A stretch of DNA of 64,000 nucleotides from Tepidisphaeraceae bacterium (GCA_965214125.1 CBDCBA010000011.1:1-64000), one strand, 5' to 3'. Positions 7,047 through 63,025 are shown, numbered from the stretch's first letter. Made by a program: numbers and translations. Notes: a model not told the origin generated them from the letters alone.

Positions 7047-8029
7047 GCAATGCAAGGGCCGGCGTGACGGGCGACACGATGGTTCTCGCCGGCATCGACG
7101 AGGCGGGTTACGGCCCGGTGCTCGGACCGTTCACCCTCGGCTGCTGCGCCGTCCGCGTCCCGAAGCCCGGCGACGGCCTGCCGGACGTCTGGAACCTGCT
7201 CAAGACGGCCGTCTCCGCCAAGCGTGATCGCACCGGGCGACGTTTGCACGTGAACGACTCGAAGAAGGTCTACTCGCCATCGCTGGGGCTGAAGGAGCTC
7301 GAGAAGTCGATGCTCGCGGTGCGGCCGGCGGCGAGCTTCGACGCGTTTCTTGCCGCCGTTGATCCGGCGGCGCCGGAGCGCTCCCGCGAGGTGCCGTGGT
7401 ACGCCGCCCCGTCGGATGAGCCCCACCCGCACGCCACCGACGCCGCGGCCGTCGCCATTGCCGCCAACGCGTTGAAGCATGCCCGCGAATCGAGCGGCGT
7501 GGGGGCGTTCGAAGTCGGCGGGCGCGTCGTGTTCGAGCCGGAGTACAACCGCCTCTGCGACACCCTGCGCAACAAGTCGGCCGTGGCGCAGACGATCGTC
7601 GCCCAGCTCATCGATGGCCTGCTCCAACGCCACGCGAGCGACGGCTTGACCATAGTGGTTGATCGCCAGGGCGGCCGCTCGCACTACGGCGACTTTCTGC
7701 GGCAGATGTTCGGCGCGTGGGAACTTTCGGTGCTGCGGGAGGACGACGCGCGGGCCGACTACACGCTGTCACGAGGCACTGATTCGGTGCAGATCACGTT
7801 CGCCGAAAAGGCCGAGACGCTGGCGTTGCCAACGGGCTTGGCGTCGATGACGGCCAAGTACCTGCGCGAGCGCCTGATGGGCCGCTTCAACGCTTGGTGG
7901 CGGTCGCACGACCCGTCGCTCAAGCCGACCGCCGGCTACTGGACCGACGGCCACCGCTGGCTTGAGGAGTCGCACGCACTCCGCGACCGCCTCGGCATCG
8001 ATCAATCGACGCTCGTGCGCCGCCGGTGA
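7043..8029 (+). CDS. RNase HII-family-like protein with ~130-aa C-terminal extension
   Basis: MVLAGIDEAGYGPVLGPFTLGC matches the RNase HII catalytic N-terminal motif (G-[IV]-DE-[AV]-G-R-G-P, here Tyr replaces Arg), and HVNDSKKVYS matches the DSKK motif. The ATG at 7043 overlaps the glcF-like stop (ATGA); MVLAG at 7079 is an alternative start. Confidence 0.55.
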   Translation: MSNARAGVTGDTMVLAGIDEAGYGPVLGPFTLGCCAVRVPKPGDGLPDVWNLLKTAVSAKRDRTGRRLHVNDSKKVYSPSLGLKELEKSMLAVRPAASFDAFLAAVDPAAPERSREVPWYAAPSDEPHPHATDAAAVAIAANALKHARESSGVGAFEVGGRVVFEPEYNRLCDTLRNKSAVAQTIVAQLIDGLLQRHASDGLTIVVDRQGGRSHYGDFLRQMFGAWELSVLREDDARADYTLSRGTDSVQITFAEKAETLALPTGLASMTAKYLRERLMGRFNAWWRSHDPSLKPTAGYWTDGHRWLEESHALRDRLGIDQSTLVRRR

Positions 8030-10726: not shown

Positions 10727-10764
10727 CCCGCCGCCCCGCTCCCGCGGGGCGGCGGGTTCTGTTG
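10727..10764 (+). terminator. Rho-independent terminator-like hairpin (cccgccgccccg-ctcc-cggggcggcggg followed by ttctgtt)
   Basis: 12-bp GC stem, 4-nt loop, then a T-rich run, 58 nt after the stop of the secreted-protein gene and before the astA start. Confidence 0.55.
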
Positions 10765-10782
10765 ATCGTCGGAAGGATCGCC

Positions 10783-11856
10783 ATGCTACGGATTCGGCCG
10801 GTCGCCGAGCGCGACCTCGACCCGCTCGCCAACCTGGTCGCCCTCACGCGCGGCGGCATCACCACGTTGCCGACGGATCGCGACCAGCTCGCCAAGCGCA
10901 TTCACCAAAGCTGCGGCGCCTTCGCCCACGAGGCCGACCGGCCCGGTGGGGAGCTCTACAGCTTCGTCCTCGAGGACGACCGCCAGCCCGGCCAACTGCT
11001 CGGCACGAGCAGCATTGTCAGCAAGACCGGCGGGTTCGACCCGTTCTACTGCTACGAGGTGCGCGAGGAGCACTACCAGAGCGACGTGCTGAAGGTCGAC
11101 CGGCTCGTCCGCTCGATTCACCTCGTCGAAGACCACAGCGGCCCTGCGGAGGTCGGCGGACTATTCCTCAGGCCCGGCGTGCGCGGGGGCGGGTTCGGGC
11201 GGCTGCTGAGCGTCGCGCGATTTCTCTTTATGGCCGGTCGGCCTAAGGCCTTCGACCCACACGTCGTCGCCGAGATTCGCGGCGTGGTCGACGAGGCGGG
11301 CAACAGCCCGTTCTGGGACGCGATCGGCCGACACTTTTTCGGGGTCTCCTTCGCCGAGGCCGACCAGCTCAGCGTGAAGGAGAAGCAGATCATCGCCGAC
11401 CTGATGCCCGACCACCCGATTTACCTCGACATGCTGCCGCAAACCGCCCGCGCCGTTGTCGGCGTGGAACACGACTTCTCGCGCCCCGCGCGGCGGCTGC
11501 TCGAAAGCGAAGGGTTCGGCTTCCGCGAGCGCGTCGACATCTTCGACGCCGGCCCGACCATCGAGTGCCCGCTGGCCAACATCCGCGCGGTTCGCGCGAG
11601 CCGTGTCGCCGAGGTGGCGGACCTGTGCGACGCAGACGACGACGCGGCCGACGTGCTGGTTTGCAACGACCGCCTCGACTTCTGCGCCTGTCCGGCCAGC
11701 ATCTTCGAGACGGACGCGGGTGTGCAGATCAGCGCGTCCGCCGCCGCCGCTCTGAATGTCAGGCCCGGTCAGAGCGTTCGCTACGTCTCCCTTCGCCCCC
11801 ACCACCCCCACCATCCCCGCTCGTCGCCGGACCTGACGATCCCGATGGAGGCTTGA
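10783..11856 (+). CDS. astA: Arginine N-succinyltransferase
   Basis: N-terminus MLRIRPVAERDLDPL and overall length/pattern match AstA; followed by astD- and astB-like genes. His-Pro-rich C-terminal tail (RPHHPHHPRSSP). Confidence 0.8.
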   Translation: MLRIRPVAERDLDPLANLVALTRGGITTLPTDRDQLAKRIHQSCGAFAHEADRPGGELYSFVLEDDRQPGQLLGTSSIVSKTGGFDPFYCYEVREEHYQSDVLKVDRLVRSIHLVEDHSGPAEVGGLFLRPGVRGGGFGRLLSVARFLFMAGRPKAFDPHVVAEIRGVVDEAGNSPFWDAIGRHFFGVSFAEADQLSVKEKQIIADLMPDHPIYLDMLPQTARAVVGVEHDFSRPARRLLESEGFGFRERVDIFDAGPTIECPLANIRAVRASRVAEVADLCDADDDAADVLVCNDRLDFCACPASIFETDAGVQISASAAAALNVRPGQSVRYVSLRPHHPHHPRSSPDLTIPMEA

Positions 11857-11877
11857 CGCGACGATACGCTTCCTGAC

Positions 11878-13299
11878 GTGGAACTCCTCTCGAATAATCC
11901 GGCGACGGGCGACGTGGTGTGGCGTGGACCCTCGTCCTCCACATCGGACGTGGCCGATGCCGTCGCAGCCGCCCGCGCGGCCCAGCCGGCGTGGGCAGCG
12001 CGACCGAGCGAGGAGCGCCGCGCGATTCTCACCCGCTTCGCCGAGCTCGCGACGGAGCGCAAGTCGGACCTGGCCGACCTCATTCTCACCGAAGCCGGCC
12101 GCGTGCGGAGCGACGCCAACGCCGAGGCCGGCGCGGTGGCGGGCAAGGTGAAGCTCACGTTCGCCGCCCTCGACGGGCGTCGGGCGGACGAGCGCCACGA
12201 TCTTGGCAACGGCCTTGTCGGCCGGGTGACGCACAAGCCGATCGGCGTCCTGGCGGTGCTCGGGCCGTTCAACTTCCCGATGCACCTCGCCAACGGCCAC
12301 CTCGTGCCGGCCCTGCTGACGGGCAACGCCTGCGTCTTCAAGCCAAGCGAGCTCACGCCCGCGTGCGGCGAACTGCTCGCATCGCTCTTCCACGAAGCCG
12401 GCGTGCCGGAGGACGTGCTGCGCGTCGTCCAGGGCGGTCGGGAGACGGGCGAGGCCCTTGTCGGGGGCGATGTGGACGGCGTGCTGCTCACCGGCAGTGA
12501 CCGCGCTGCCGAGGCTATCTACAAGACGCTGCGCTATGACCAACTGCTAGCGGTCGAGGCCGGCGGAAACAACCCGCTCGTCGTTCACGGGCCCGTCGAC
12601 GTCGAGCAGGCCGTCAAGCTGACGATCGAGTCCGCCTACGTCTCCGCAGGCCAACGATGCACGTGCGCCCGTCGACTAATCGTGACCGATGACGTGCCGA
12701 ACGAGTTTATCGATAAGCTCGTCGCCGCCGTTCGCGAGGTGAGGGTTGATCTGCCGGAGAACGACCCGCTGGTCGGCCCGCTCATTTCGCAGCGTGCCGT
12801 CGATGCCTTGCTCGAGGCGCAGCGTCAGTTGCTTGACGCGGGCGCGACGGCGCTCGTCGCAGGGTCGAGCGCGGCAGACCTGCGACGCGTGGCGTCGCAG
12901 CTACCCGGTGGTGGCGCGTTTGTTTCCCCAGGATTGATGGATACCACAGGTGTCGGTGCGCCCGATGCCGAAGTGTTCGGACCCCTTCTGCAACTCGAAC
13001 GTGTCGACACTTTTGAGGGCGCGATCCACGCGGCGAACGCCACGCGGTACGGCCTTGCGGCCGGCTTAGTTGGCGGCACGCGCGAGGAGTTCGAGCGGTT
13101 CCTACACAAAAGCCGCGCCGGCTGCGTGAACTGGAACCGTCCGCTGACCGGCGCCAGCGGCAAGCTCCCCTTCGGCGGCGTCGGGCGTAGCGGCAACTCC
13201 CGCCCCGCCGGCTCGACGAGCATCGACTACTGCACCTACCCGGTCGCGACGCTCGAAGAAGAAGACTCACCACGGAGGCACGGAGACACGGAGGAGTAA
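11878..13299 (+). CDS. astD: Succinylglutamate-semialdehyde dehydrogenase (aldehyde dehydrogenase family)
   Basis: Aldehyde dehydrogenase fold (GPFNFPMHLANGHLVPALLTGNACVFKPSELTP; catalytic Cys region AGQRCTCARRL); its position between astA and astB supports AstD. GTG start. Confidence 0.8.
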   Translation: MELLSNNPATGDVVWRGPSSSTSDVADAVAAARAAQPAWAARPSEERRAILTRFAELATERKSDLADLILTEAGRVRSDANAEAGAVAGKVKLTFAALDGRRADERHDLGNGLVGRVTHKPIGVLAVLGPFNFPMHLANGHLVPALLTGNACVFKPSELTPACGELLASLFHEAGVPEDVLRVVQGGRETGEALVGGDVDGVLLTGSDRAAEAIYKTLRYDQLLAVEAGGNNPLVVHGPVDVEQAVKLTIESAYVSAGQRCTCARRLIVTDDVPNEFIDKLVAAVREVRVDLPENDPLVGPLISQRAVDALLEAQRQLLDAGATALVAGSSAADLRRVASQLPGGGAFVSPGLMDTTGVGAPDAEVFGPLLQLERVDTFEGAIHAANATRYGLAAGLVGGTREEFERFLHKSRAGCVNWNRPLTGASGKLPFGGVGRSGNSRPAGSTSIDYCTYPVATLEEEDSPRRHGDTEE

Positions 13300-13359
13300 G
13301 CTGTTGCTTCGGCCTCTGAAGCCAATCTCTCCTCTCCGTGTCTCCGTGCTTCCGTGGTG
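13268..13359 (+). promoter_or_regulatory. Imperfect ~29-bp inverted repeat spanning the astD 3' end and the astB translation start
   Basis: caccacggaggcacggagacacggaggag (astD codons for PRRHGDTEE + stop) pairs with ctcctctccgtgtctccgtgcttccgtggtg, whose 3' end contains the GTG GTG start of astB; 32-nt spacer. Confidence 0.5.
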
Positions 13360-14715
13360 AACTACTCCGAATACAACTTCGACGGCCTCGTCGGCCCCAC
13401 GCACAACTACGCCGGGCTCGGCAGCGGGAACCTGGCGTCGATGTCGAGCAAGGCCAGCGTCAGCCACCCGCGGGCGGCGGCGTTGGAGGGCCTCTCGAAG
13501 ATGCGCCTCCTCGCCAACCTCGGCGTGCCGCAGGCGATCCTCCCGCCGCAACGTCGGCCACACCTAGGCTACCTGCGAAGCTGCGGGTACGGCAGTAAAC
13601 CGGCCGAGGTTCTTGAGAATGCCGCAAAGGCCGGCGACGCGGGTCGGCGCGATCTGGCGATTGCCAGCAGCGCCAGCAGCATGTGGGCCGCCAACGCCGC
13701 GACGGTCTCGCCCAGCCCCGACACGGCCAACGGCCGGTGCCACTTCACGATCGCCAACCTCGCCAGCCAGCGCCACCGGGCGCTGGAGTCGTTCGAGCGG
13801 CTGACGATCTTTGAGCACCTGTTCGGCGACGGGCGGTACTTCAAGGTCCACCCGCCACTGCCAAGCACGTTGCCGGACGAGGGGGCGGCGAACCACACGC
13901 GGTTGAGCGGCTTCGATTTTGAACTGGGCTACCACATCTTCACCTACGGGTTCGACGCGACATCCAGCCTAATACAAGGGAAGTTCCAGCCGCGACAATC
14001 GCTTGGTGCTTCGCGGCGGATCGCGGAGCAGCACGGGCATGTTTTCCAGTTTCCGTCGGGTGCCGAGTGCTTCGTGAAGCAGACGCAGGAGGCGATCGAG
14101 GCAGGCGTGTTCCACAACGACGTCATCAGTGTCGGCAACGAGTTCGTGCTGTTGATCCACGAGCATGCGTGGGTCAATCAGCCGACGGCGGCCGATGCCG
14201 TTCACGACGCCATGCACATCGCCGGTGTCGATGAGGTGCGGATGACATTTACAGACAAAGAACTGCCAATAGCGGAAGCGGTTCAGTCTTACCTCTTCAA
14301 CTCGCAGCTCGTCACGCTGCGTGGAATCAAGGGCGAAGACAACTGGGAGTGCAAGATGGTCCTCGTCTACCCCGCCGAGTGCGAGGAGATCCCGTCGGCG
14401 AAGGCGGCGATCGAGCGCATCCTGCGGGAGGACAATCCCGTCCAGCACGCCGTGCGGGCGGACGTCCGCCAGAGCATGCGCAACGGCGGCGGGCCGGCCT
14501 GCTTACGGCTGCGGGTCGTGCTGAGCGACGAGGAGAAGGCTGCTGTCCGCGGGAACGTCTTCTGGACGCCGGCGCTGCACGACACGCTCGTCGATTGGGT
14601 CACGCGGCACTACCGCGAAGCCCTCACGCCCGCCGACTTGGCCGACGTGCGGCTGTACGAAGAGAGCGAGACGGCCCTCGACGAGCTGGCGGAGATTCTG
14701 CAACTGCCGATCTGA
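13354..14715 (+). CDS. astB: N-succinylarginine dihydrolase
   Basis: VNYSEYNFDGLVGPTHNYAGLGSGNLAS closely parallels the AstB N-terminus ([24 protein letters not shown]); full-length ~450 aa. GTG start. Confidence 0.85.
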   Translation: MVNYSEYNFDGLVGPTHNYAGLGSGNLASMSSKASVSHPRAAALEGLSKMRLLANLGVPQAILPPQRRPHLGYLRSCGYGSKPAEVLENAAKAGDAGRRDLAIASSASSMWAANAATVSPSPDTANGRCHFTIANLASQRHRALESFERLTIFEHLFGDGRYFKVHPPLPSTLPDEGAANHTRLSGFDFELGYHIFTYGFDATSSLIQGKFQPRQSLGASRRIAEQHGHVFQFPSGAECFVKQTQEAIEAGVFHNDVISVGNEFVLLIHEHAWVNQPTAADAVHDAMHIAGVDEVRMTFTDKELPIAEAVQSYLFNSQLVTLRGIKGEDNWECKMVLVYPAECEEIPSAKAAIERILREDNPVQHAVRADVRQSMRNGGGPACLRLRVVLSDEEKAAVRGNVFWTPALHDTLVDWVTRHYREALTPADLADVRLYEESETALDELAEILQLPI

Positions 14716-18425: not shown

Positions 18426-19652
18426 CTACGTTCGCGCCAGCAGCGCGGCGCAGGCGGCGCCGACGAAGTTGGCGCTCGGCTTGCCGGGCTGGTCGTCGTG
18501 CGTGAAGAGCTCGACGCGCACGCCGGGCAACAGCGTGTCGAGACGCGAGCGAACGCGGTCGATGTAGCCGGCGGTTTTGGTCAGGAACGATCCCTCGCCC
18601 AGGACCGCCACGCGGCCGGGGTCGGCGTAGTAGCGGACGAGGCCGGCGATCTTCGCGGCGACGAGGTCGGCCGAGCGATCAACGAGCACTCGGGCGCATC
18701 GGCCGGCAAAGTCATCGCGGGACCGCAGTTCCACCAGGTCCGCCCCGGCGTCGGCGGCGTCGGGATCGAAACCGTCCGGGGCCGCGTCGCGGGCGAGCCG
18801 GGCGAACAGGTGTGGCAGGTAGCTGCCGGCCATCGCCTTCTCGAAGCGCTGCCCGCCGACGTTGCCGCCGCTGTGCGTGCGGTCGAAGTCGTCGTCAAGG
18901 TCGGTCAGGTGGCGCGGGTGGAAGTTGCCGCTTTCGAGGTTGACCGCGATCTCCTCCTCCGCCCAATCGCCCTGGAGCTTGCCGACATCCTTCGCCGAAA
19001 GAAACGCCGCCGTATTCGTGCCGGTGCCGGCGATCAGGCCGATGTAGCGGTCCGCCGTCGGACGATCAACGACGGCAGCGAGCAGCGTGGCGACCGTGTC
19101 GTTGACCGTGAAGATCGACGGCACGTCGCCTTCGACCAGATCATTCAGGCGATTCTTCAGGCGTTCCGCGACGTTCTCGCCTTCGAGGCTTTGCAGTTGC
19201 ACGTCCTTCGTCCAGTGAATCAGCTTGGCCGTGCCGTCGGGCTGGATCTCGGCCGGGTAGCTGAAGCAGTAGCCGACGGGCAGGGCGCGATTGTTCGTCG
19301 CCTTGGCGGCAAGTTGTGCTTGGCGGTCGAAGAAACCGTCGGGCGTGACGTTGCCGGGCTGCTTAGCCTCGGTCATCAGGCGGTCGTCCTTGTTGACGAC
19401 GCCGAGCGAGTCGGCGGTGCCCGGCCCGACGCGCACGCCGCCGGCCCGCAGGTTCGTGCCGCCCAGATCAATGACACACGCCTCCCCCGCCGGCGGCTGG
19501 TCCGGCTTGGGCAGGTACGCCGGCAGGCACTTCAGTTCCGGATTCGCGCCGCTGAGCCCGTCGCGCAGCGTCTGGGTGAAGTCGTCGCGGATGTCGGCAA
19601 GCTGGGCGTCGCTCAGGCGAAACGGCGAAAGGTCGGCGGTGGCGGCGGGCAT
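18426..19652 (-). CDS. Hexokinase-family sugar kinase
   Basis: ACVIDLGGTNLRAGGVRV (phosphate-1 motif LDLGGTNFRV-like), GLIAGTGTNTAAF (phosphate-2), ~400 aa. Confidence 0.75.
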   Translation of the reverse strand: MPAATADLSPFRLSDAQLADIRDDFTQTLRDGLSGANPELKCLPAYLPKPDQPPAGEACVIDLGGTNLRAGGVRVGPGTADSLGVVNKDDRLMTEAKQPGNVTPDGFFDRQAQLAAKATNNRALPVGYCFSYPAEIQPDGTAKLIHWTKDVQLQSLEGENVAERLKNRLNDLVEGDVPSIFTVNDTVATLLAAVVDRPTADRYIGLIAGTGTNTAAFLSAKDVGKLQGDWAEEEIAVNLESGNFHPRHLTDLDDDFDRTHSGGNVGGQRFEKAMAGSYLPHLFARLARDAAPDGFDPDAADAGADLVELRSRDDFAGRCARVLVDRSADLVAAKIAGLVRYYADPGRVAVLGEGSFLTKTAGYIDRVRSRLDTLLPGVRVELFTHDDQPGKPSANFVGAACAALLART

Positions 19653-32658: not shown

Positions 32659-33204
32659 ATGACCAACATTCGCCCAAATCGAATTCGTATCGCCCTGATC
32701 GCGTGCGTTCTGTGCCTGGCCTTGCCGGCGGCGGCGTCGGCAAACGTCTCGGCCCGCAACGAGTTGCTGCGGATCCGCGACCAGATCGAGAACGAGCTGC
32801 GCAACAGCCCGGAGATGCGGCGGGCCGTGCTCGACGCGCGGGATGCCCGGCGGGAGTACGTCCTCGCACGGCGGGCAGCGACGGCAGCGCTCGAGAAAGA
32901 TTCCGATTACCTCGCCTCCCGCCTGGAGTCCGATCAATTGCAGGAGGAGCTCGACGCGATTTACCACCGGTATCGCTACGGCGTCGCCCCGATTGAGCGG
33001 ACGCATCCGCTCGCGAAGCGCATCCTCGCCATCCGGAGCGAAGCCACCGAAATGCGGGCCGAGGCGATGATCCAGCACGTGGCGACGCAGGAGACGCGGG
33101 CCCGCTTCGTCGAGGCCGGTCGCCGACTGGCGGCGTTGCGGCGCTCGATCCCGGACGCGATCCGGCGCGACCCCCGCTTCCAACGCCTGCGCGGAACTCG
33201 ATAG
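32659..33204 (+). CDS. Secreted coiled-coil hypothetical protein (paralog-like to 9593..10669 N-region)
   Basis: MTNIRPNRIRIALIACVLCLALPAAASA signal peptide (AGGAG/GGGAG upstream); shares the E-x-R-R/D-A-x-LDAR-x-A-x-x-EY pattern with the protein at 9593. Confidence 0.55.
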   Translation: MTNIRPNRIRIALIACVLCLALPAAASANVSARNELLRIRDQIENELRNSPEMRRAVLDARDARREYVLARRAATAALEKDSDYLASRLESDQLQEELDAIYHRYRYGVAPIERTHPLAKRILAIRSEATEMRAEAMIQHVATQETRARFVEAGRRLAALRRSIPDAIRRDPRFQRLRGTR

Positions 33205-33259: not shown

Positions 33260-34666
33260 GTGCCGGCGATCGCTCTTGTTTCCATGCTTCACGAGGTCGG
33301 CGCCGGAAGCGCCGCCCGAGCCTGCTGGGGTCGCCCGGTGCTGGCGTCAACGCTCGCGCGGCTGGGTCGCTGCGAGCACCTCGACGGCATCGCCGTTCTC
33401 TGCCGCGACGATCAACACGAGGTCGCCCTCCGGGCCGTGGGCGACGCGGCCACGGTCGTGCCGGTTGCGGTGGACGCGAACGACCCGGAACTTCGCACGA
33501 TCGCGAACGCACAACGCTGGGCCGACGGCTGGCGCGGCGGCCTGCTCGGCACCACGCCCGCCGACGCCGGCTGGCACGCCGAGGCGGCCCTTGCGGTTGC
33601 CGACGCGACTGATGCCAACCTGGTCGTCCCCGTGCCCGCCAGCTTCGCCCTGATCGACCCGACGTTGGTCGATCGTCTGCTTAAGCACGCCAGCTCGCAG
33701 AACGACGGCGGCCAAGGAGAACCCGTCTTCTTTCTACCGACGCCGCCCGGCTTGTGCGGCTTGGCCGTGACCCGCGAGCACGTGGAGACACTGGCGGCGG
33801 CCCCGCCCCGCCAGCGGCATCCCGGCCGTGTGCTGCACTACCTGCCCGACGCGCCGCGCATCGACCCGATTGGTCTCGCCGCGTGTCCCGGCGGGGTTTC
33901 GCCGCTCGTCAGCCAGAGTGTCGCCGACTTCCGACTCGAGACCTCCCGCAGCACCGCGTGGGCGGAACTGTCGCTGAGAAACGCCGACAGCGCTGACGCC
34001 GAAACGCTGTGCCAGCAGGCCCGGTCGTGCCCGAACCCGCCGCGCGACGCGAGCATCGACCTCGTAGACACCCGGACCGCCTTGCCCATCTGGCAACCGA
34101 AGTCGACGGCTGCGCCGTTGCGCCCGGACGTCGTGAAGGCGTTGGCCACCCGTGCCGACGACGGCCGCCTGACGCTGGCGGGTCGCGGCGATCCGCTGCG
34201 GTCGCCGGACCTGTTCGCGACGATCCAATCGGCGACCGAAGCCGGACTTTCGGTCCACCTCGAGACGGACCTGCTCGACGCCGACGCCGAGACATTGCAG
34301 CGTCTCGCCACCAGCGGCGTGGCAGTCGTGAGCGTCCACGTGCCGGCCATGACGAGCCAGACCTACGCCAGCGTGATGGGCGTCAACGCGATGGCCACGG
34401 CCCTGCGCAACCTGCTCACGCTGCACGCCCTGTCGCTGCGCGTCGGCGGGCCGATCGTCGTGCCGACCTTAGTGAAGGTTCGCCAGAACGTGGCCGAGAT
34501 GGAGGCCTGGTACGACCACTGGCTGCGCGCCTGCGGCGCGGCGGTGATCCGCGGGCCCGACTTCTTCGCCAACGAGCCCGCCCGGCCAAACCTCGCGACG
34601 GCGCCGCTGCTGCGAACAGATCGCCACCCGCTCGACGCCGTGACCGAATCTCCGCTTGCCGCCTGA
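33260..34666 (+). CDS. Two-domain protein: N-terminal nucleotidyltransferase (GT-A/MobA-like, cytidylyltransferase-like) region + C-terminal radical-SAM/TIM-barrel-like region lacking a CxxxCxxC motif
   Basis: N-terminus AIALVSML...GAGSAARAC.GRPVLASTLARL...LDGIAVLCRDDQHEV resembles the NTP-transferase P-loop region; C-terminal half has LTLAGRGDPLRSPDLFATIQSATEAGLSVHLETDLL...VAVVSVHVPAM, reminiscent of radical-SAM barrel layout but without the Cys triad. First gene of the neuA-neuB-neuC operon. Confidence 0.5.
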   Translation: MPAIALVSMLHEVGAGSAARACWGRPVLASTLARLGRCEHLDGIAVLCRDDQHEVALRAVGDAATVVPVAVDANDPELRTIANAQRWADGWRGGLLGTTPADAGWHAEAALAVADATDANLVVPVPASFALIDPTLVDRLLKHASSQNDGGQGEPVFFLPTPPGLCGLAVTREHVETLAAAPPRQRHPGRVLHYLPDAPRIDPIGLAACPGGVSPLVSQSVADFRLETSRSTAWAELSLRNADSADAETLCQQARSCPNPPRDASIDLVDTRTALPIWQPKSTAAPLRPDVVKALATRADDGRLTLAGRGDPLRSPDLFATIQSATEAGLSVHLETDLLDADAETLQRLATSGVAVVSVHVPAMTSQTYASVMGVNAMATALRNLLTLHALSLRVGGPIVVPTLVKVRQNVAEMEAWYDHWLRACGAAVIRGPDFFANEPARPNLATAPLLRTDRHPLDAVTESPLAA

Positions 34667-34680
34667 TCTTCCCCCGAACC

Positions 34681-35427
34681 ATGACTCACCTTCCGCAAAC
34701 GCTCGGCGTCGTCCTCGCCCGCGCCGGTAGCCAGGGGCTGCCGGGCAAGCACCTGCGCGCCCTCCTGGGCCGCCCGGTGATCGCGCACGCCTTCGACCAC
34801 GCCGTCGCGGCCGAGACGTTGTCGCGCGTGGTCGTCACGAGCGACTGCCCGACGATTCGCCGCCTCGCCGCGGAGCGCCGGCTGCCGAGCGTGGAGCGTC
34901 CGCCGGAGCTTTGCACGAGCGACGCGAGCGTGCAGGACACGCTGCTGCACGCCCTTGACGCCGTCGAAGCCCGCACGAGTTGGCGGGCGGAGGCGATCGT
35001 GATTCTCTACGGCAACGTGCCGGTGCGACCGGTCGGCGCGATCGACCGCTGCGTGCGCCACTTGGCCGAGACCGGCTGTTGCAGCGTCCGGACGTTCGCC
35101 CCGGTCGGCAAGTGGCACCCCGGCTGGATGGCCGCCCTCGACGGCGACGTGGTCCGCCCGACGCGGCCCGGCAGCATCCACCGGCGGCAGGATTTGGAGC
35201 CGTTGTTCCTTCACGATGGCGGCTGCGTCGCGATGAGCCGCGCCGCCCTCGAGCGTGGCCGGAGTGAGCCAGGTGACCCGCACGCGATGTTCGGGGTCGA
35301 CCGCCGCGGCGTGCAGGTGGAGGCGGGCGCAACGGTGGAGGTCGATTGCGAGCGCGACCTGTTCCTCGCCGAAGCCGCCCTGCGGGCGCGGGGCTCGGCC
35401 GGGATGGCGATTCGCATGGCCGCTTGA
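34681..35427 (+). CDS. neuA: Acylneuraminate (CMP-nonulosonic acid) cytidylyltransferase
   Basis: LGVVLARAGSQGLPGKHLRALLGRPVIAHAF...VVVTSD matches the NeuA/KdsB-type motif (AR.GSKG.P.KN...L.GKPLI). Confidence 0.8.
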   Translation: MTHLPQTLGVVLARAGSQGLPGKHLRALLGRPVIAHAFDHAVAAETLSRVVVTSDCPTIRRLAAERRLPSVERPPELCTSDASVQDTLLHALDAVEARTSWRAEAIVILYGNVPVRPVGAIDRCVRHLAETGCCSVRTFAPVGKWHPGWMAALDGDVVRPTRPGSIHRRQDLEPLFLHDGGCVAMSRAALERGRSEPGDPHAMFGVDRRGVQVEAGATVEVDCERDLFLAEAALRARGSAGMAIRMAA

Positions 35428-35452
35428 GTCGATTCGGCCGATCAACCGTACC

Positions 35453-36532
35453 ATGCCGCCCGATTCTTCCGATCCCGTTCTGCGCCTCGGCGACCGCAAC
35501 GTCGGCATCGGTGCGCCGGCTTTTGTAATCGCGGAGATCGGCGTCAACCACGATGGCAGCGTCACGCGCGCCCTCGAGCTTGTCGGCCACGCCCGCGACG
35601 CCGGGGCAGACGCGATCAAGCTGCAACTCTTTTCTGCGGGCCGCCTCGTTCACCCCTGCGCGGGCTTGGCCGATTACCAGCGGACCGCGGGCGAGACGGA
35701 CCAAACGGCCATGCTGCGTCGCTTCGAGCTGGCCGCGGGCGAGGTGCAACGCATCGTCGACGCCGCCCGCGATGCCGGCCTCGTGCCGCTGGCAACGCCG
35801 TTCTCTCCTGAAGATTTGGAGCAAATCGAGCGGCTGGATTTGCCGGCGATCAAGCTGGCGTCGCCGGACCTCGTCAACCCGCTGTTGCTCGATGCGGCGG
35901 CCGACTCGGGCCGGGCCATCCTCGCCAGTACGGGCGCGGCGGACGAGGCGGAGATTATCTGGGCGGCCGACCGGCTGCGCGGCCGTCACGCCCCGTTCGC
36001 CCTGCTGCACTGCGTCAGCAGCTACCCCACGCCCGACCCCGCGGCGCAGCTGCGGCGGGTCGACACGCTTCGCCGCACAGGCGAGTGGGTCGTCGGGCTG
36101 AGCGACCACACGCAGAGTGAACTCGCCGGTGCGCTTGCGGTCGCGGCGGGCGCGAGCGTGATCGAGAAGCACCTGACCCACGACCGCCGCGCCGCCGGTC
36201 CCGACCACGCGGCCAGTGCCGACCCGTTGATGTTCCGCCGCTACGTCGAGGCCATTCGTCAGGCCGAGGTCTTGCTCGGCGACGGCCGCGGCGAGCGTGT
36301 GCCACAAGCGTGTGAGGCGGACGTGCGCCGGGAAAGCCGCCAATCTCTCGTTGCCCGCGTTGACATTTCGGCCGGGGCGACAATTGCGCGGTGGATGCTC
36401 ACCTGTCAGCGGCCGGGGACCGGTTTGCCGGCGGCAATGCTCGATGCCGTAATCGGCCAGCGAACTGCGCGACCGCTGCTCGCGGGCGCGATGCTTCAGT
36501 CGGACGACCTTGTCCGCCGGGAGGCCGCGTGA
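35453..36532 (+). CDS. neuB: N-acetylneuraminate (nonulosonic acid) synthase
   Basis: AFVIAEIGVNHDGSVTRALELVGHARDAGADAIKLQ (NeuB TIM-barrel N-terminus) and a C-terminal SAF/antifreeze-like domain. Confidence 0.85.
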   Translation: MPPDSSDPVLRLGDRNVGIGAPAFVIAEIGVNHDGSVTRALELVGHARDAGADAIKLQLFSAGRLVHPCAGLADYQRTAGETDQTAMLRRFELAAGEVQRIVDAARDAGLVPLATPFSPEDLEQIERLDLPAIKLASPDLVNPLLLDAAADSGRAILASTGAADEAEIIWAADRLRGRHAPFALLHCVSSYPTPDPAAQLRRVDTLRRTGEWVVGLSDHTQSELAGALAVAAGASVIEKHLTHDRRAAGPDHAASADPLMFRRYVEAIRQAEVLLGDGRGERVPQACEADVRRESRQSLVARVDISAGATIARWMLTCQRPGTGLPAAMLDAVIGQRTARPLLAGAMLQSDDLVRREAA

Positions 36533-37725
36533 TTTCACCGGCGCCCACGTCTGTTCGCGAGCAGCCGACGATCGCCGCGCCGCCGCGCGTGCGTCGGCGG
36601 GTCTGCTTCGTCACCGGCACCCGCGCCGAGTACGGCCTGATGCGGACCACGCTCGACGCGCTCGACCAGCACGCGGGCATCGAGCCGCAGTTGATCGCGA
36701 CGGGCACGCACCTCGACCCGTCCCACGGCCGCACGGTCGCCGACATTCGCGGCGAGGGGCGGCGCGTTCACGCGGAAGTCTCGTGGCCAGCGACAAGCGA
36801 CCGCTTCGCCTACGCCGCCGCAGTCGGGCGGGCGACGGCCGATCTTGCCGCCGCTTACGCGAAGGTTCGGCCCGACGTCGTGCTGGTCGTCGGCGACCGC
36901 GTGGAGGCCTTTGCCGCGGCGCAGGCGGCGCACCTGGCGGGCGTTGCCGTCGCACATGTCCACGGCGGCGACCGCGCGACGGGACAGGCCGATGACGCGC
37001 TGCGTCACGCGACCACCAAGCTCGCCCACCTCCACCTCGCCGCGACACCGACCAGCGCCGAACGCATCCTGAAACTCGGCGAGGACCCGTGGCGGGTCCA
37101 CGCCGTTGGCGCGCCTGGGATCGACGGGATCACCGAGCACGCCGCCGCCCGTTCGGAGGTCGCGGTGGCGGTCGGCGATGGGCCCTTCGCCTTACTGATT
37201 TATCACCCGACGCGCGACGACGACGCGGGCGAGTGGGCGGGCACGCGGCGACTGCTCGACGCGCTGCTCCGTGCGGGCGTTCCGAAGGTGGTGGCAATTG
37301 GGCCCAACAACGATCCGGGCCACCGCGGCATCGCCGGCTGCCTGTCCCGCGCGGCCGCGACCGACCGGCGGGTCCGGCTCTTCGCCAACCTGCCGCGCCC
37401 GCTGCTGCTGGGCCTGATGCGCGATGCGGCGCTGATGATCGGCAACAGCAGCAGCGGCATCATTGAGGCTGCCAGCTTCGGCCTACCCGTGATCGACGTC
37501 GGCCCCCGCCAACACGGCCGCGAACGCGGCGGCAACGTGTGCCACGTCGACGATCGCCCCGCCGACCTGTCGTCGGCCGTCCAAGCCATCTGGAACGACG
37601 GCCGACCCCAGCGATGGGCCGGCACCAACGTCTACGGCGGCACCGGCGCCGGCGAACGGATCGCCCAACTGCTCGCGACCACGCCGATCACCCCGGCATT
37701 TTTACGGAAGACCATCGCGTACTGA
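36529..37725 (+). CDS. neuC: UDP-N-acetylglucosamine 2-epimerase (hydrolysing), NeuC-type
   Basis: RRVCFVTGTRAEYGLM...(GDRVEAFAAAQAAHLAGVAVAHVHGGD)...HLAATPTSAERI matches non-hydrolysing/hydrolysing UDP-GlcNAc 2-epimerase family. A GTG at 36529 overlaps the neuB stop (GTGA); a GTG ~60 nt later is an alternative start. Confidence 0.8.
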   Translation: MISPAPTSVREQPTIAAPPRVRRRVCFVTGTRAEYGLMRTTLDALDQHAGIEPQLIATGTHLDPSHGRTVADIRGEGRRVHAEVSWPATSDRFAYAAAVGRATADLAAAYAKVRPDVVLVVGDRVEAFAAAQAAHLAGVAVAHVHGGDRATGQADDALRHATTKLAHLHLAATPTSAERILKLGEDPWRVHAVGAPGIDGITEHAAARSEVAVAVGDGPFALLIYHPTRDDDAGEWAGTRRLLDALLRAGVPKVVAIGPNNDPGHRGIAGCLSRAAATDRRVRLFANLPRPLLLGLMRDAALMIGNSSSGIIEAASFGLPVIDVGPRQHGRERGGNVCHVDDRPADLSSAVQAIWNDGRPQRWAGTNVYGGTGAGERIAQLLATTPITPAFLRKTIAY

Positions 37726-59214: not shown

Positions 59215-60492
59215 CTAACTTACCACCGGCAACGCACCACGCGTCGCTTCTTTGATCTTCTCCCACCCGCTGCCAAGCTCGCCGATGGGGTCCGGCGGCT
59301 TGACCTCGACGACCTTGTCGCCCAGCTTCGCCTCGCCGGCCTGCACCTTCGTCTGAAAGGCTTTGCACTCGTGCAGCAAACGGTCGAGGATGTCGGCCTC
59401 GGGGATGTTAGCGACTTTCTCGCCCTGCACGTAAATGATTCCTTTCTTGTTGCCCGCAAAGATGGCAACGTCGGCCCCCTCGGCCTCGCCGGGGCCGTTG
59501 ACGACGCAGCCCATCACGGCCACCTTCATCGGAACCGTGATCTCGCTCGCGAGCATCTTGCGGACGTCCTGCGTCAGCGTGAACAAATCGACCTGAATTC
59601 GCCCGCACGTCGGGCAGGCGATGAGCTCGGCCCCGACGCGCTCGCGAAGGCCGAGGGTATAAAGCAGTTCGAGACCATCCTCGACTTCATAGATCGGGTC
59701 GTTCGCGTATGAAATGCGAATCGTGTCGCCAATGCCGCTCGCGAGCAAATGGCCCAGCGGGACAACGCTGCGGATCGTCCCCGTCTCCTTCGGCCCGGCG
59801 TGCGTGACGCCCAGGTGCAGCGGGTAATCGAACCGCTTGCTGATCTCCGTGTACGCCGCGATGACGAGCTGCGCGTCGATGCTCTTGGCGCTGATGGCGA
59901 TGTCGTGGAAATCTTCTTTGTGGAAGATGTCGAGGTACTCCTCGAGCTTCGTAATCATGATCGCCAGCAGGTGGCCGTGCTTGCTATCGCTGAAGTACCC
60001 GCCGAGTTCCTTCAGGCGGCGCTGCTTGTCCTTGCGCTCGATGATCGACCCCTCGTTGACGCCCACGCGGATGGGCAGCTTGCGCTCCTTGCACGCCTGG
60101 ATCACGTCGATCACCTGCTTGCGATCGTTGATGTTCCCAGGATTCAGGCGAATCTTGTGGACGCCCGCCTCGACGGCTTCGAGGGCGCGCTTAAAGTGGA
60201 AATGCACATCCGCCACGATCGGCACGGGTGAGGCGGGGATGATCTCCTTCAGCGCTTCCGTGTCCTTGCGCTCCGGCACGGCAACGCGCACCACGTCGGC
60301 GCCGGCGTCGGCGAGCTTTTGCACCTCGGCGATGCAGTTGGCGACGTCCCACGTGTAGCCGCTGGTCATCGTCTGGACGACCACGGGGGCGGGCTCCGTG
60401 CCGTCGAGACCGCCGCCGATTTTGACGGGGCCGCGGGGGTGGTGGGCGTCGCCGCCGAGCGTGATCTGTCGGGTGGGTTTGCGCGGGAACAT
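59215..60492 (-). CDS. ispG: 4-hydroxy-3-methylbut-2-en-1-yl diphosphate synthase (GcpE)
   Basis: TMTSGYTWDV, VVRVAVP, IVADVHFHF, IRLNPGNI, and Fe-S ligands ACPTCGRIQ ... MGCVVNGPGE. The C-terminal ~60 aa extends beyond the enterobacterial form. Confidence 0.9.
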   Translation of the reverse strand: MFPRKPTRQITLGGDAHHPRGPVKIGGGLDGTEPAPVVVQTMTSGYTWDVANCIAEVQKLADAGADVVRVAVPERKDTEALKEIIPASPVPIVADVHFHFKRALEAVEAGVHKIRLNPGNINDRKQVIDVIQACKERKLPIRVGVNEGSIIERKDKQRRLKELGGYFSDSKHGHLLAIMITKLEEYLDIFHKEDFHDIAISAKSIDAQLVIAAYTEISKRFDYPLHLGVTHAGPKETGTIRSVVPLGHLLASGIGDTIRISYANDPIYEVEDGLELLYTLGLRERVGAELIACPTCGRIQVDLFTLTQDVRKMLASEITVPMKVAVMGCVVNGPGEAEGADVAIFAGNKKGIIYVQGEKVANIPEADILDRLLHECKAFQTKVQAGEAKLGDKVVEVKPPDPIGELGSGWEKIKEATRGALPVVS

Positions 60493-60582
60493 GGCGAGAC
60501 GGGGCGAGAGTGTCGTGGGAAGGAGCGGGCAAGCAACGATAGCGGCCGCGCCGTATGATGTGGACGCCCCCGAGGCCGACCC

Positions 60583-62034
60583 ATGCGACGCTTTTGCCTC
60601 CATCTCGCGATCGCCGCCGTGGCGTGTCCCGCGGCCCTCGCCTCCGCGCAGACCACGACGCCGTCGCTGGCCGACCTGGGCGACTTCGAGGACGCGGTGC
60701 GGGCATCGCGCGACGACCTGGTGCGTGCCGCCCGCGCGGACGCGGTGGACCGGCTCTTCCTGGCCGTCAAAGCCGAGGCGCTGGCGCCGGGATTGACCGT
60801 CGGCGGGATGCTCGGCCAGCTCAACGATGGCGCGGCCCGGCGCGTGCGGCAGGCGCTCGAGGACGCGCCGCAGATCGGTGGCCCACGGTTCGCAGCGCCC
60901 GGCACGGCGCAGGTGCAGCTTCAAGCCGGCGGCGAGTTGGTGGCCGCGGCGCTGCGGCGCGAGCTGGCCCGCGATGGCGCTGCCGATCGGCTGCCGGAAA
61001 GCGTCTCGTTCGCCCACATCGAGCGCACCCTGCGCCGCTGGACAGGCCGAAACTTCGTCGCGCTCGGCCGCAGCGTGACGCCGGAGATGGCGCTGGGTGC
61101 CCTGCCGCGCGACGGGGCGGGCACCAACTCGCGGATCGAGCCGCTCGACCCCGAAACCGGCTGGCCCGCCGTTCCCGATGAGGCGCGGCAGCGGGCGTTC
61201 GTCGAGGCGCGACGCGAGGTGATGGAGCGCCTGATGACCGCCGCCCGGCCGGTGCCGCTGGCGAGCGAGTCCGACGACCCCGAGTCGTCGCAGGAAGTTC
61301 CGGCCGGCACGCTCGGCGACCTCTTCGACCTCGGCCGCGTCGGCGAGCAGTCGCGTCGCTACCTCGCCGCCCGACCGGTCACGCGGATCGCCTTCGCCGA
61401 CGAGCGCCAGATCCGCGTGAGCCTGTCCCTCGACCCGGCGGACTGGGTGGCGCGGCTCCGCGGCGATTTGGAGGAGATTCCCAATGCCCCGGCGCTCGAC
61501 GACCGCCAGTGGGCGGAGGTCATCACACGCCTCGCCGCGGCGCTGCCGGAGGAGGTCACGGGCACCGCCGTCGCGGAGGCGCCCGGCGACGGATCGCCGC
61601 GGGTGGCCGATCCGGAGGCGAACACTTTGGTCGCGGCGTTGCGGCCGCTCGTCGATCCAACCGACGCCGCCGCCGTCGTGCCGCAGTGGTCCCGCCAGCT
61701 CATCGCCGCGACGGGGCAGGCGGGCTACGCAATCGAAGCGGACGAGCCGGATTGGCAGCAGTCGCGCAAGCGCCTGATCGCCGCACGTGCCGCCGAGCGC
61801 GACGCCCGCGCGGCACTGGTGGAGGCGTTGCGGGCGTTGCCGCTGGGCGAGCAGAGCACGCTCGGCGCCGTTGCCGACACCCACACGCCCACGAGCCTGC
61901 TGCTGGCCGCCGCGGCAGAATCGGCCACCGTCAAGGGCAGCGCCTACGACGACGCCAGCGGCCGTGTCGAGGTCTCGCTCACCGCCGACGGCCGCGCGCT
62001 GTGGCAGCAACTGATCTCCCTTGGCGGCAACTAA
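60583..62034 (+). CDS. Secreted hypothetical protein
   Basis: Signal peptide MRRFCLHLAIAAVACPAALASAQ; 483 aa, Ala/Arg/Asp-rich, no recognised domain. Lies between ispG and ispH. Confidence 0.5.
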   Translation: MRRFCLHLAIAAVACPAALASAQTTTPSLADLGDFEDAVRASRDDLVRAARADAVDRLFLAVKAEALAPGLTVGGMLGQLNDGAARRVRQALEDAPQIGGPRFAAPGTAQVQLQAGGELVAAALRRELARDGAADRLPESVSFAHIERTLRRWTGRNFVALGRSVTPEMALGALPRDGAGTNSRIEPLDPETGWPAVPDEARQRAFVEARREVMERLMTAARPVPLASESDDPESSQEVPAGTLGDLFDLGRVGEQSRRYLAARPVTRIAFADERQIRVSLSLDPADWVARLRGDLEEIPNAPALDDRQWAEVITRLAAALPEEVTGTAVAEAPGDGSPRVADPEANTLVAALRPLVDPTDAAAVVPQWSRQLIAATGQAGYAIEADEPDWQQSRKRLIAARAAERDARAALVEALRALPLGEQSTLGAVADTHTPTSLLLAAAAESATVKGSAYDDASGRVEVSLTADGRALWQQLISLGGN

Positions 62035-62083
62035 CGCCGATGTCGGACAAGCCTCGATCCGCTCGCGGCCGTACCGTCTGAGC

Positions 62084-63025
62084 ATGCGCATCTTGCTCGC
62101 CAACCCCCGCGGATTCTGCGCCGGCGTGCGGATGGCAATCGACGTGGTCGACCACGTCCTGCGCCACCAGGGGCCGCCGGTGTTCGTCTACCACGCGATC
62201 GTCCACAACAAGCACGTCGTCGACGACTTCGTCAGCCGTGGCGTGCGCTTCGTCGAGGACGTGGCCGCCGTGCCACGTGGAGCAACGGTCGTCTTCAGCG
62301 CCCACGGCATTCCCCCCGCCGTCCGTCAGCAGGCGGCCGAGCGGGATCTGGTCGTTCACGACGCGACGTGCCCGCTCGTTACGAAGGTTCACAACGAGGT
62401 CGTCCGCTACGCCCGCGAGGGATACCACATCATCTTCATCGGCCACCGCAACCACCAGGAGGCGATCGGCACGGTGGGCGAGGCGCCCGACGCAATGACG
62501 ATTGTTGAGACGCCCGAGGAGGCCGCGGTGTTGGACATCCCGCTCGACCAGAAGCTCGCGTACGCGACGCAGACGACGCTGAGCGTGACGGACGCGCAGC
62601 GGGTGATCGACGTGCTCGTGGAGCGTTTCCCGCACATTCGCCGGCCGCCGCGGGAGGACATCTGCTACGCGACGACCAACCGCCAGGACGCCGTGGGCGC
62701 TTGGGCGGCCGAGGCGGACGTCGTGCTCGTGGTCGGCAGCAAGAACAGCTCGAACAGCAATCGCCTCGTCGACCGCGCCGTCGAACTCGGCACGCCCGGC
62801 CATCTGGTGGATGATGAATCGGAGATCGACCCGCGGTGGCTCGATGGGGCCAAGACCGTGCTCGTCACCGCCGGCGCCAGCGCCCCGGAGGCGTACGTGG
62901 AGGGCGTTCTGGCCCGGCTCCAACAGGAGTTTGGTGCCCGCGTCGAAGAGCGCTCGCTGGCGGAGGAGAACGTGCAGTTCGCGCTACCGCGTACCGTTCG
63001 CAAGCTGGCGGTGGTGGGGTCGTAG
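62084..63025 (+). CDS. ispH: 4-hydroxy-3-methylbut-2-enyl diphosphate reductase (LytB)
   Basis: MRILLANPRGFCAGVRMAIDVV (Cys1), ...HDATCPLVTKVH (Cys2), ...DICYATTNRQ (Cys3), SSNSNRL. Start at M22 of the ORF. Confidence 0.9.
   Translation: MRILLANPRGFCAGVRMAIDVVDHVLRHQGPPVFVYHAIVHNKHVVDDFVSRGVRFVEDVAAVPRGATVVFSAHGIPPAVRQQAAERDLVVHDATCPLVTKVHNEVVRYAREGYHIIFIGHRNHQEAIGTVGEAPDAMTIVETPEEAAVLDIPLDQKLAYATQTTLSVTDAQRVIDVLVERFPHIRRPPREDICYATTNRQDAVGAWAAEADVVLVVGSKNSSNSNRLVDRAVELGTPGHLVDDESEIDPRWLDGAKTVLVTAGASAPEAYVEGVLARLQQEFGARVEERSLAEENVQFALPRTVRKLAVVGS

Follow-up and report, generated by a model that had tools for sequence, protein, structure and literature searches.

The window considered here is a 64,000-nucleotide stretch of DNA from a Tepidisphaeraceae bacterium (GCA_965214125.1 CBDCBA010000011.1:1-64000), in which positions 33260-37725 are occupied by four co-directional genes on the plus strand. 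The first of these, hereafter the lead gene (33260..34666), encodes a protein of 468 amino acids (aa) that combines a degenerate cytidylyltransferase-fold domain with a cysteine-less barrel derived from the radical S-adenosylmethionine (SAM) superfamily, and that carries no SPASM/Twitch domain. It is followed by genes for a NeuA-like cytidine monophosphate (CMP)-nonulosonate synthetase (34681..35427; PF02348, 5.7e-14, 52.9 bits against a cutoff of 22.6), a NeuB-like nonulosonate synthase (35453..36532; PF03102, 8.8e-63, 212 bits, with a SAF domain, PF08666) and a NeuC-like hydrolysing uridine diphosphate N-acetylglucosamine 2-epimerase (36529..37725; TIGR03568, 336 bits, exceeding the cutoff of 235.9). 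The NeuA P-loop, LARAGSxGLPGK, is intact in the window and invariant across 10 orthologues, and NeuB scores 274 bits against TIGR03569 (NeuB_NnaB), under the equivalog cutoff of 399.65. Judged by these matches, the operon is a predicted sialic-acid-type neuABC set, the sugar being putatively N-acetylneuraminic acid (Neu5Ac) or another nonulosonic acid (NulO).

The genes are closely packed: 14 nt separate the lead gene from neuA (34666 to 34681), 25 nt separate neuA from neuB (35427 to 35453), and neuB and neuC share a 4-nt GTGA overlap that is preceded by GGGAGG within the last neuB codons. Through this overlap, neuC is predicted to be translationally coupled to neuB. An earlier note on this DNA, made from the sequence by a model, had described the same four open reading frames (ORFs) with the same spacing, and the layout holds in every particular. 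GC content at third codon positions (GC3) is of the coding type in all four ORFs (0.82-0.86; 0.86 for the lead gene), in a window with a GC content of about 68-70%. Two minus-strand ORFs lying over neuA and neuB (34363-35619, 418 aa; 34835-36538, 567 aa) were regarded as shadow ORFs arising in a genome of 70% GC. A scan for promoters and terminators yielded no promoter-like site and a single terminator-like site, which lies inside neuB and is under shuffle expectation. The lead gene begins with a GTG codon at 33260, 4 nt downstream of the Shine-Dalgarno-like AAGAGGGG, whereas the database copy of the protein, P0001 (460 aa), begins at Met9. Because the eight residues before Met9 are conserved among lead homologues and a Shine-Dalgarno-like sequence is in place, 33260 is the better start.

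An AlphaFold2 model of the lead protein, built from 82 homologues, reached a predicted local distance difference test score (pLDDT) of 91.4 and a predicted template-modelling score (pTM) of 0.91. Approximately residues 1-218 (33260..33913) form a Rossmann-like nucleotidyltransferase domain, which the model and its fold matches place with the cytidylyltransferases, and approximately residues 259-432 (34034..34555) form a partial (beta/alpha)6 triosephosphate isomerase (TIM) barrel derived from radical-SAM enzymes. The short tail that follows (about residues 433-468; 34556..34663) is of low confidence, with pLDDT under 50 at residues 458-468, and replaces the four-cysteine SPASM/Twitch domain (PF13186/TIGR04085) of most homologues. 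Both halves thus proved to be what the earlier note had taken them for, namely a nucleotidyltransferase fold, which remote profile matches also support, and a radical-SAM-like barrel devoid of the cysteine triad; its view that the lead gene is no canonical component of Neu5Ac, legionaminic acid or pseudaminic acid pathways likewise stands.

The N-terminal domain has a set of motifs of its own. In the window these are WRGG (residues 91-94), D102, LIDP (131-134) and F..PPG (158-164), and at the family level WRGG, D102, LxDP and FxQAPPG are invariant. Its kinship with known enzymes is remote. Residues 1-260 of the window protein have no Pfam match at E up to 1, a phmmer search of the PDB with the window N-domain alone returned no match, and a Pfam scan of N-domains gave a sub-threshold NTP_transf_3 match only in the distant relative P0081. 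A profile of 15 N-domain sequences matched two PDB entries, the Leptospira borgpetersenii 'cytidylyltransferase' 6oew (E 0.0027) and KdsB (E 0.0044), and hhalign aligned the same profile to the NeuA family of the operon with 91% probability. Identity of the lead family to 6oew and to the synthetases of CMP-3-deoxy-d-manno-octulosonic acid and CMP-NulO (KdsB 1gq9; NeuA 1eyr, 6ifd and 9ftb) is about 12-14%.

The fold itself, together with this remote homology to 6oew, KdsB, IspD and the operon NeuA, might be read as a second, active CMP-nucleotidyltransferase beside NeuA, a catalytic reading of what the earlier note had termed a second CMP-transferase-like module. The alignments leave that proposal hardly credible. 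The invariant R14, G16 and S17 of NeuA are unmatched in the lead N-domain, and K23 faces Ser17 in the hhalign alignment; where 6oew has GDCP and KdsB has GDEP, the lead-family consensus is non-acidic; and the sugar-binding/dimerisation half of NeuA cannot be aligned to the domain. By contrast, 6oew has both a canonical ARMGSTRLPGK loop and GDCP, neither of which is present in the lead family. With the P-loop Arg/Lys and the GDxP Asp lost, and with no Pfam nucleotidyltransferase match for the window N-domain, a second CMP synthetase is therefore very unlikely. A PtmE-type second nucleotidyltransferase of the legionaminic pathway was likewise set aside, as the catalytic motifs are absent from the lead protein.

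The barrel holds the radical-SAM fold and fails the defining cluster motif of that superfamily. No CxxxCxxC occurs anywhere in the 468-residue window protein, the loop in which it would be expected reads IDLVDTRTALPIWQ, and PF04055 (radical SAM) scores 19.2 bits, under its cutoff of 29.5. The SAM-contacting motifs of the superfamily (GGE and the ribose motif) take the form of conserved variants. The window barrel keeps GRGDPL at the GGE position, ETD at the TNG position and SVHVPA (SVHVPAM in the sequence) at the SxDG position; the corresponding family variants are GDP, ETD and SVHLPA, and relatives with canonical cysteines have GLGEPLL and ETNG. Fold neighbours of the barrel among radical-SAM enzymes include viperin, BlsE, DesII and AprD4, and the best PDB sequence match of the family profile is the radical-SAM dehydrogenase BtrN (4m7t, 1.2e-10). 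BtrN and the family have in common a compact radical-SAM core, and the four-cysteine C-terminal domain of the family aligns to the Twitch region of BtrN. However, BtrN retains its cluster cysteines (CNRTCWYC), opposite which the cysteine-free loop of the family aligns; it also possesses the Twitch domain that the window copy lacks, and has no nucleotidyltransferase-like N-domain. The window protein ends about 35 residues past the barrel and contains no Cys after position 445. In the alignment, truncation after RTDR with an AA ending is common to the window, P0003-P0005 and L003-L005, and the lead protein of L006 has a degenerate tail in which remnants of the Twitch sequence are still visible.

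The fusion of the two halves, earlier described as unusual, is not unique to the window; it typifies a large family related to the uncharacterised TIGR04321. The 84 homologues of the window protein, with 26-50% identity and, in nearly all, 87-99% query coverage (54-78% in three of the matches listed), come from Phycisphaerae and mostly from Tepidisphaerales, the cultured Fontivita pretiosa among them. A HMMER search with the family profile gave 737 cluster representatives at E <=1e-30, the best 150 all being below 1e-98, and P0001 matches the profile at 1e-139. Among 217 aligned members, the cluster loop is Cys-free in 169, and CxxxCxxC stands at the right position only in P0195 and P0202 (VEVTNRCKMQCSFCPR). 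Four to five C-terminal cysteines (C...C...CxxC) are present in most of the 217 and none in about 20, and the SPASM domain (PF13186) is found in most relatives of the window protein. The family descends from a genuine radical-SAM/Twitch enzyme, the CxxxCxxC form of which survives in a flagellin-FliD-FliS glycosylation island, and the window copy is a reduced member from which the auxiliary-cluster domain has been lost as well. The family preserves successive stages of enzyme decay, from an intact radical-SAM/Twitch protein, by way of members without the cluster cysteines, to one devoid of any iron-sulfur site, and this natural series lends itself to studies of the path from radical-SAM enzyme to pseudoenzyme.

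Among curated models, the NCBIfam subfamily TIGR04321 'spiro-SPASM' comes closest, with a cutoff of 250 bits that neither the window protein nor any tested relative reaches. The window protein scores 48.6 bits, relatives score 54-137 bits (about 137 being typical of full-length ones), and the canonical-cysteine relatives score 198-209 bits. Full-length relatives cover the profile from about position 77-90 to 506 of 510 and are alike in overall architecture, which comprises part of the N-domain, the radical-SAM-like core and the SPASM domain; the window copy differs in the absence of the SPASM domain, and the organisms examined here are Phycisphaerae, whereas the name of the model suggests spirochetes, to which it is presumably restricted. 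One relative, P0277, is named 'spiro-SPASM protein' by the Joint Genome Institute. Homologue searches from the canonical-cysteine clade, aimed at spirochete members of TIGR04321, returned only the same few metagenomic proteins, and the spirochete link therefore rests on hidden Markov model scores. A curated precedent for a pseudo-radical-SAM name with a SPASM domain is provided by TIGR04347, the 'pseudo-SAM/SPASM protein' of Halobacteria; its matches to the canonical-cysteine relatives and to P0063 are weak (18-48 bits against a cutoff of 525), and it differs in having no nucleotidyltransferase-like domain and in belonging to another lineage.

Stepwise loss of the cluster cysteines, the Twitch cysteines and finally the whole domain, with the cytidylyltransferase motifs gone too, might be expected of a functionless relic of an ancestral radical-SAM gene that is simply carried along in the operon. 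This explanation is improbable. The reading frame is intact and retains its coding-type GC3, the structural model is confident and compact, and in no fewer than five separate assemblies the truncated form is conserved, with identities near 50% and the operon position unchanged. Outside the missing tail, the window protein departs from family positions of at least 85% conservation at only three (D227E, E267D and D355A), with one further conserved Arg absent from its cluster-loop region; so few departures argue against a decaying relic.

The genomic context of the family was compared across 82 related loci. The earlier note had reckoned with the gene being unlinked to neuABC in relatives, an idea that fails because the lead gene is tightly linked to these genes: among the 62 loci with at least 4.5 kb of downstream sequence, neuA is found downstream of it in 61, neuB in 58 and neuC in 52, and the lead gene is accompanied by all three in order in 51. 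Moreover, all-against-all clustering of neighbouring ORFs identified, as the most conserved neighbour, a protein of about 650 residues encoded immediately upstream of the lead gene, and this protein is a Maf glycosyltransferase (PF01973, 1e-38, plus Maf_flag10_N). Of 75 assessable loci, 71 have maf directly upstream of the lead gene and in the same orientation (64 detected by ORF clustering, plus 7 missed there and recovered by tblastn). Measured in 64 loci, the projected lead start lies at -3 nt from the Maf stop in 16 and at 0 in 19, and the called maf and lead genes overlap by 4 nt in L083, L084, L089 and L090. The two are also joined in one polypeptide in several lineages. Seven representatives are proteins of 1,208-1,253 aa with the family match in their C-terminal part, and a Maf-lead fusion was confirmed in all four long representatives scanned against Pfam. 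Two fusion clusters contain full-length copies from many independent contigs, and in L088 the fusion is followed by neuA-neuB-neuC-HDOD in one operon.

The canonical-cysteine relative P0195 lies in a classic flagellin glycosylation island composed of genes for flagellin, FlaG, FliD, FliS, DUF8042, Maf, the lead protein, NeuA, NeuB and NeuC, which continues with a methyltransferase, an acetyltransferase, a dehydratase and an aminotransferase. L083 and L084 are loci of the same flagellin-FlaG-FliD-FliS-DUF8042-Maf-lead-neuA-neuB-neuC order, with NulO-modifying genes. The Maf-lead pair is found without neuABC in L089 (7100-10635) and L021 (4629-8155), and in L090 (7088-13553) an AP_endonuc_2 protein (a xylose-isomerase-like TIM barrel) and a BNR (sialidase-like) protein are encoded between the lead gene and a NeuA-like gene. 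Such variation suggests that one and the same Maf-lead module can draw its sugar from different sources. In Phycisphaerae, the family is a constituent of loci for Maf-type NulO protein glycosylation. Literature searches yielded no description of the family or of its link to Maf, and a Leptospira NulO paper and a Treponema flagella paper make no mention of such a gene.

Taken together, these data lead us to favour, with a probability of roughly 0.5, the reading that the lead protein binds a CMP sugar as a non-radical and probably non-catalytic partner in glycosylation with nonulosonic acid, its ancestor having been a true radical-SAM enzyme. Such a protein would be capable of neither radical chemistry nor activation dependent on cytidine triphosphate. 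Instead, CMP-NulO made by the adjacent NeuA would be bound by the dead synthetase-like domain and the conserved pocket of the barrel, and from there passed or presented to a transferase, which could be a Maf encoded elsewhere in the genome of the window organism or another NulO transferase. Of the two functions offered by the earlier note, a modified sugar or its transfer, it is transfer that the overlap and fusion with maf in relatives favour, and the modified sugar has become the less favoured one.

Several published findings bear on such a role. Tepidisphaeraceae are motile by means of one flagellum (PMC13514998), and Maf enzymes can, according to a preprint, transfer NulOs, Neu5Ac included, to flagellin (bioRxiv 10.1101/2020.06.03.131540). 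Some Mafs require a cis-encoded accessory protein, GlfM, an 89-residue four-helix bundle that binds flagellin (10.1101/2023.12.03.569772). The role proposed for the lead protein would be comparable in logic to that of GlfM in Maf-2 systems: in each case a cis-encoded protein adjoins maf in a flagellin glycosylation locus, and in the present family the gene overlaps maf or is fused to it. However, lead proteins are 470-550 aa long, have two or three domains and are derived from an enzyme; they have no relation to GlfM in sequence or fold, and their partnership with Maf is one that we infer. That the lead protein or one of its small neighbours might itself be GlfM was ruled out, given the 89-aa, four-helix architecture of GlfM.

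A number of points weigh against the proposed partner role. Binding and partnership are read from synteny, fusion and lost catalytic motifs. Strongly conserved polar residues of the barrel (R272, D311, D337, Y369, K406 and E415) would fit non-radical catalysis equally well. By tblastn, no Maf homologue is present within the 64-kb window, and none lies within 10 kb in L003-L005, the three closest relatives of the window; with no adjacent Maf, the partner may therefore differ in this sub-lineage. In addition, L087 carries genes for epimerases/dehydratases and GT4 glycosyltransferases right after neuC.

The conserved barrel residues open the way to a different explanation, in which the lead protein is a repurposed enzyme. 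Here the cysteine-less barrel, with or without the N-domain, would catalyse a non-radical modification of NulO or CMP-NulO, for example an epimerisation, a dehydration or an acyl- or methyl-type step, and so generate a modified sialic-acid-like sugar. We regard this as possible, if doubtful. Polar residues along the barrel motifs are invariant or nearly so (to those just listed may be added E335, T336 and W421, giving R272, D311, E335-T336-D337, Y369, K406, E415 and W421), the radical-SAM relatives BtrN, viperin, BlsE, DesII and AprD4 include enzymes acting on sugar, nucleotide or cytidine substrates, and the island of the canonical-cysteine relatives is rich in NulO-tailoring genes (the methyltransferase, acetyltransferase, dehydratase and aminotransferase noted above). 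Yet the known chemistry of the radical-SAM fold needs a [4Fe-4S] cluster, which is absent here, and the lead gene occurs with a simple neuABC set, with sets resembling those for legionaminic or pseudaminic acid, and even without NulO synthesis genes (L089 and L021). With such varied sugar sets, a role tied to Maf fits better than one tied to a single sugar structure, and the Maf fusion points to a physical partnership.

Loci without an adjacent Maf are confined to the window and its closest relatives, L003-L006, and these are the same loci in which the Twitch domain has been lost or degraded. In L006, Maf is encoded 6 kb away on the other strand. The slot held by Maf elsewhere is occupied in the window by a gene for a small protein (32659..33204, plus strand; about 181 aa from ATG 32659) whose N-terminus resembles a signal peptide and whose body is helical. 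It has no Pfam match, and its homologues, at 27-48% identity, are encoded directly upstream of the lead gene (L086:9451-9993, L087:5684-6250 and L005:9487-9924); their alignment contains 22 invariant columns and a C-terminal IRxDPRFQR motif. The small protein is conserved only in the Maf-less, Twitch-less sub-lineage and is absent from Maf-linked loci, and it may belong to the operon in the sub-lineage of the window. The genes around the operon are of a housekeeping kind, encoding ABC transporters, Fur, a solute-binding protein, glucoamylase, phosphoglucomutase, the ast operon and IspG/IspH.

From this distribution arises the alternative that the sub-lineage has been uncoupled from Maf and flagellin, so that its lead protein works with the NulO enzymes or another transferase and feeds a capsule or other surface glycan, together with the small, newly gained secreted protein upstream. 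The coincidence of Twitch-domain loss with loss of Maf adjacency speaks for it, as do the restriction of that loss to the window and L003-L006, the conserved signal-peptide protein directly upstream in the same relatives, and the epimerase/dehydratase and GT4 genes that follow neuC in L087. Uncoupling is nonetheless unlikely, as a Maf gene persists at a distance of 6 kb in L006, where the Twitch tail is degenerate, a Maf may be encoded elsewhere in these genomes, and no sialyltransferase-like gene was identified among the window ORFs scanned against Pfam.

The reading of the lead protein as a CMP-sugar-binding partner can be taken further. Across Planctomycetota, the family might be an obligate, unrecognised third component of Maf-type protein sialylation, with an enzyme-derived pseudoenzyme taking up CMP-nonulosonate from NeuA and offering it to Maf. 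In this strong form the proposal is rather speculative, and we put it forward only tentatively. The role perhaps extends to spirochetes via TIGR04321, and the stripped-down form in the lineage of the window, free of iron-sulfur sites, may function where no Maf is adjacent, perhaps by joining a new partner or serving as carrier for a non-flagellar glycan. If true, the family could account, as a 'missing component', for the failure of some Maf systems to be reconstituted with only Maf, flagellin and donor sugar. How Maf selects and receives its CMP-sugar donor is poorly understood, and published work suggests that accessory components are missing. Large, uncharacterised, overlapping or fused to maf and located before neuABC across Phycisphaerae, the family is a concrete candidate partner for protein sialylation. 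Moreover, should spirochete members prove to be Maf-linked, the present result could suggest a function for TIGR04321, to which none is assigned.

Other genes recur in the Maf-linked loci. A DUF8042 protein (PF26154, with a weak match to TP0873_N, named for a Treponema pallidum protein) is encoded directly before maf in more divergent loci, at L083:5340-5948, L084:4371-4979 and L090:6413-7045, its gene sitting between fliS and maf in L083 and L084; this protein, too, is a candidate for an accessory role. An HDOD protein (PF08668, 5e-56) follows neuC in 36 related loci (for example L014:14576-15514, L036:14757-15782 and L088:7399-8286) and may provide a signalling link to motility; no such gene follows neuC in the window. 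In 55 loci, as at L011:7281-7916 and L036:7338-7901 (both minus strand), maf is preceded by a divergent gene for a membrane protein, which is about 197 aa long, begins with two hydrophobic helices, lacks a confident Pfam match and is likewise not encoded in the window. In L001, the public gene call at 5996-7996 (666 aa, no Pfam match) is on the wrong strand, the tblastn match to Maf being on the plus strand at 6074-8002.

Elsewhere in the window, a minus-strand gene at 18426-19652 encodes a 408-aa protein with eukaryote-type hexokinase domains (PF00349, 4e-25; PF03727, 2e-23), which are uncommon in bacteria. A complete-looking arginine succinyltransferase block on the plus strand (10762-14715) comprises AstA (PF04958, 5e-115), an AstD-like aldehyde dehydrogenase and AstB (PF04996, 1e-151). 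A 962-aa minus-strand ORF (59215-62103) contains a GcpE/IspG domain only at residues 571-913. A plus-strand ORF of 483 aa (60583-62034) with even higher GC3 (0.89) lies across the 5' part of this ORF, and LytB/IspH is encoded next, at 62021-63025.

Finally, endings in -AA (PLAA, RMAA, REAA) are common among the proteins of these operons, including the lead protein, NeuA and NeuB of the window and the Maf proteins of L011, L036 and L002. At the neuB/neuC junction, the REAA codons (CGG GAG GCC GCG TGA; 36515-36532) hold both the GGGAGG ribosome-binding site and the GTGA overlap of stop and start, and at least some of the -AA termini therefore look to have been shaped by translational coupling.

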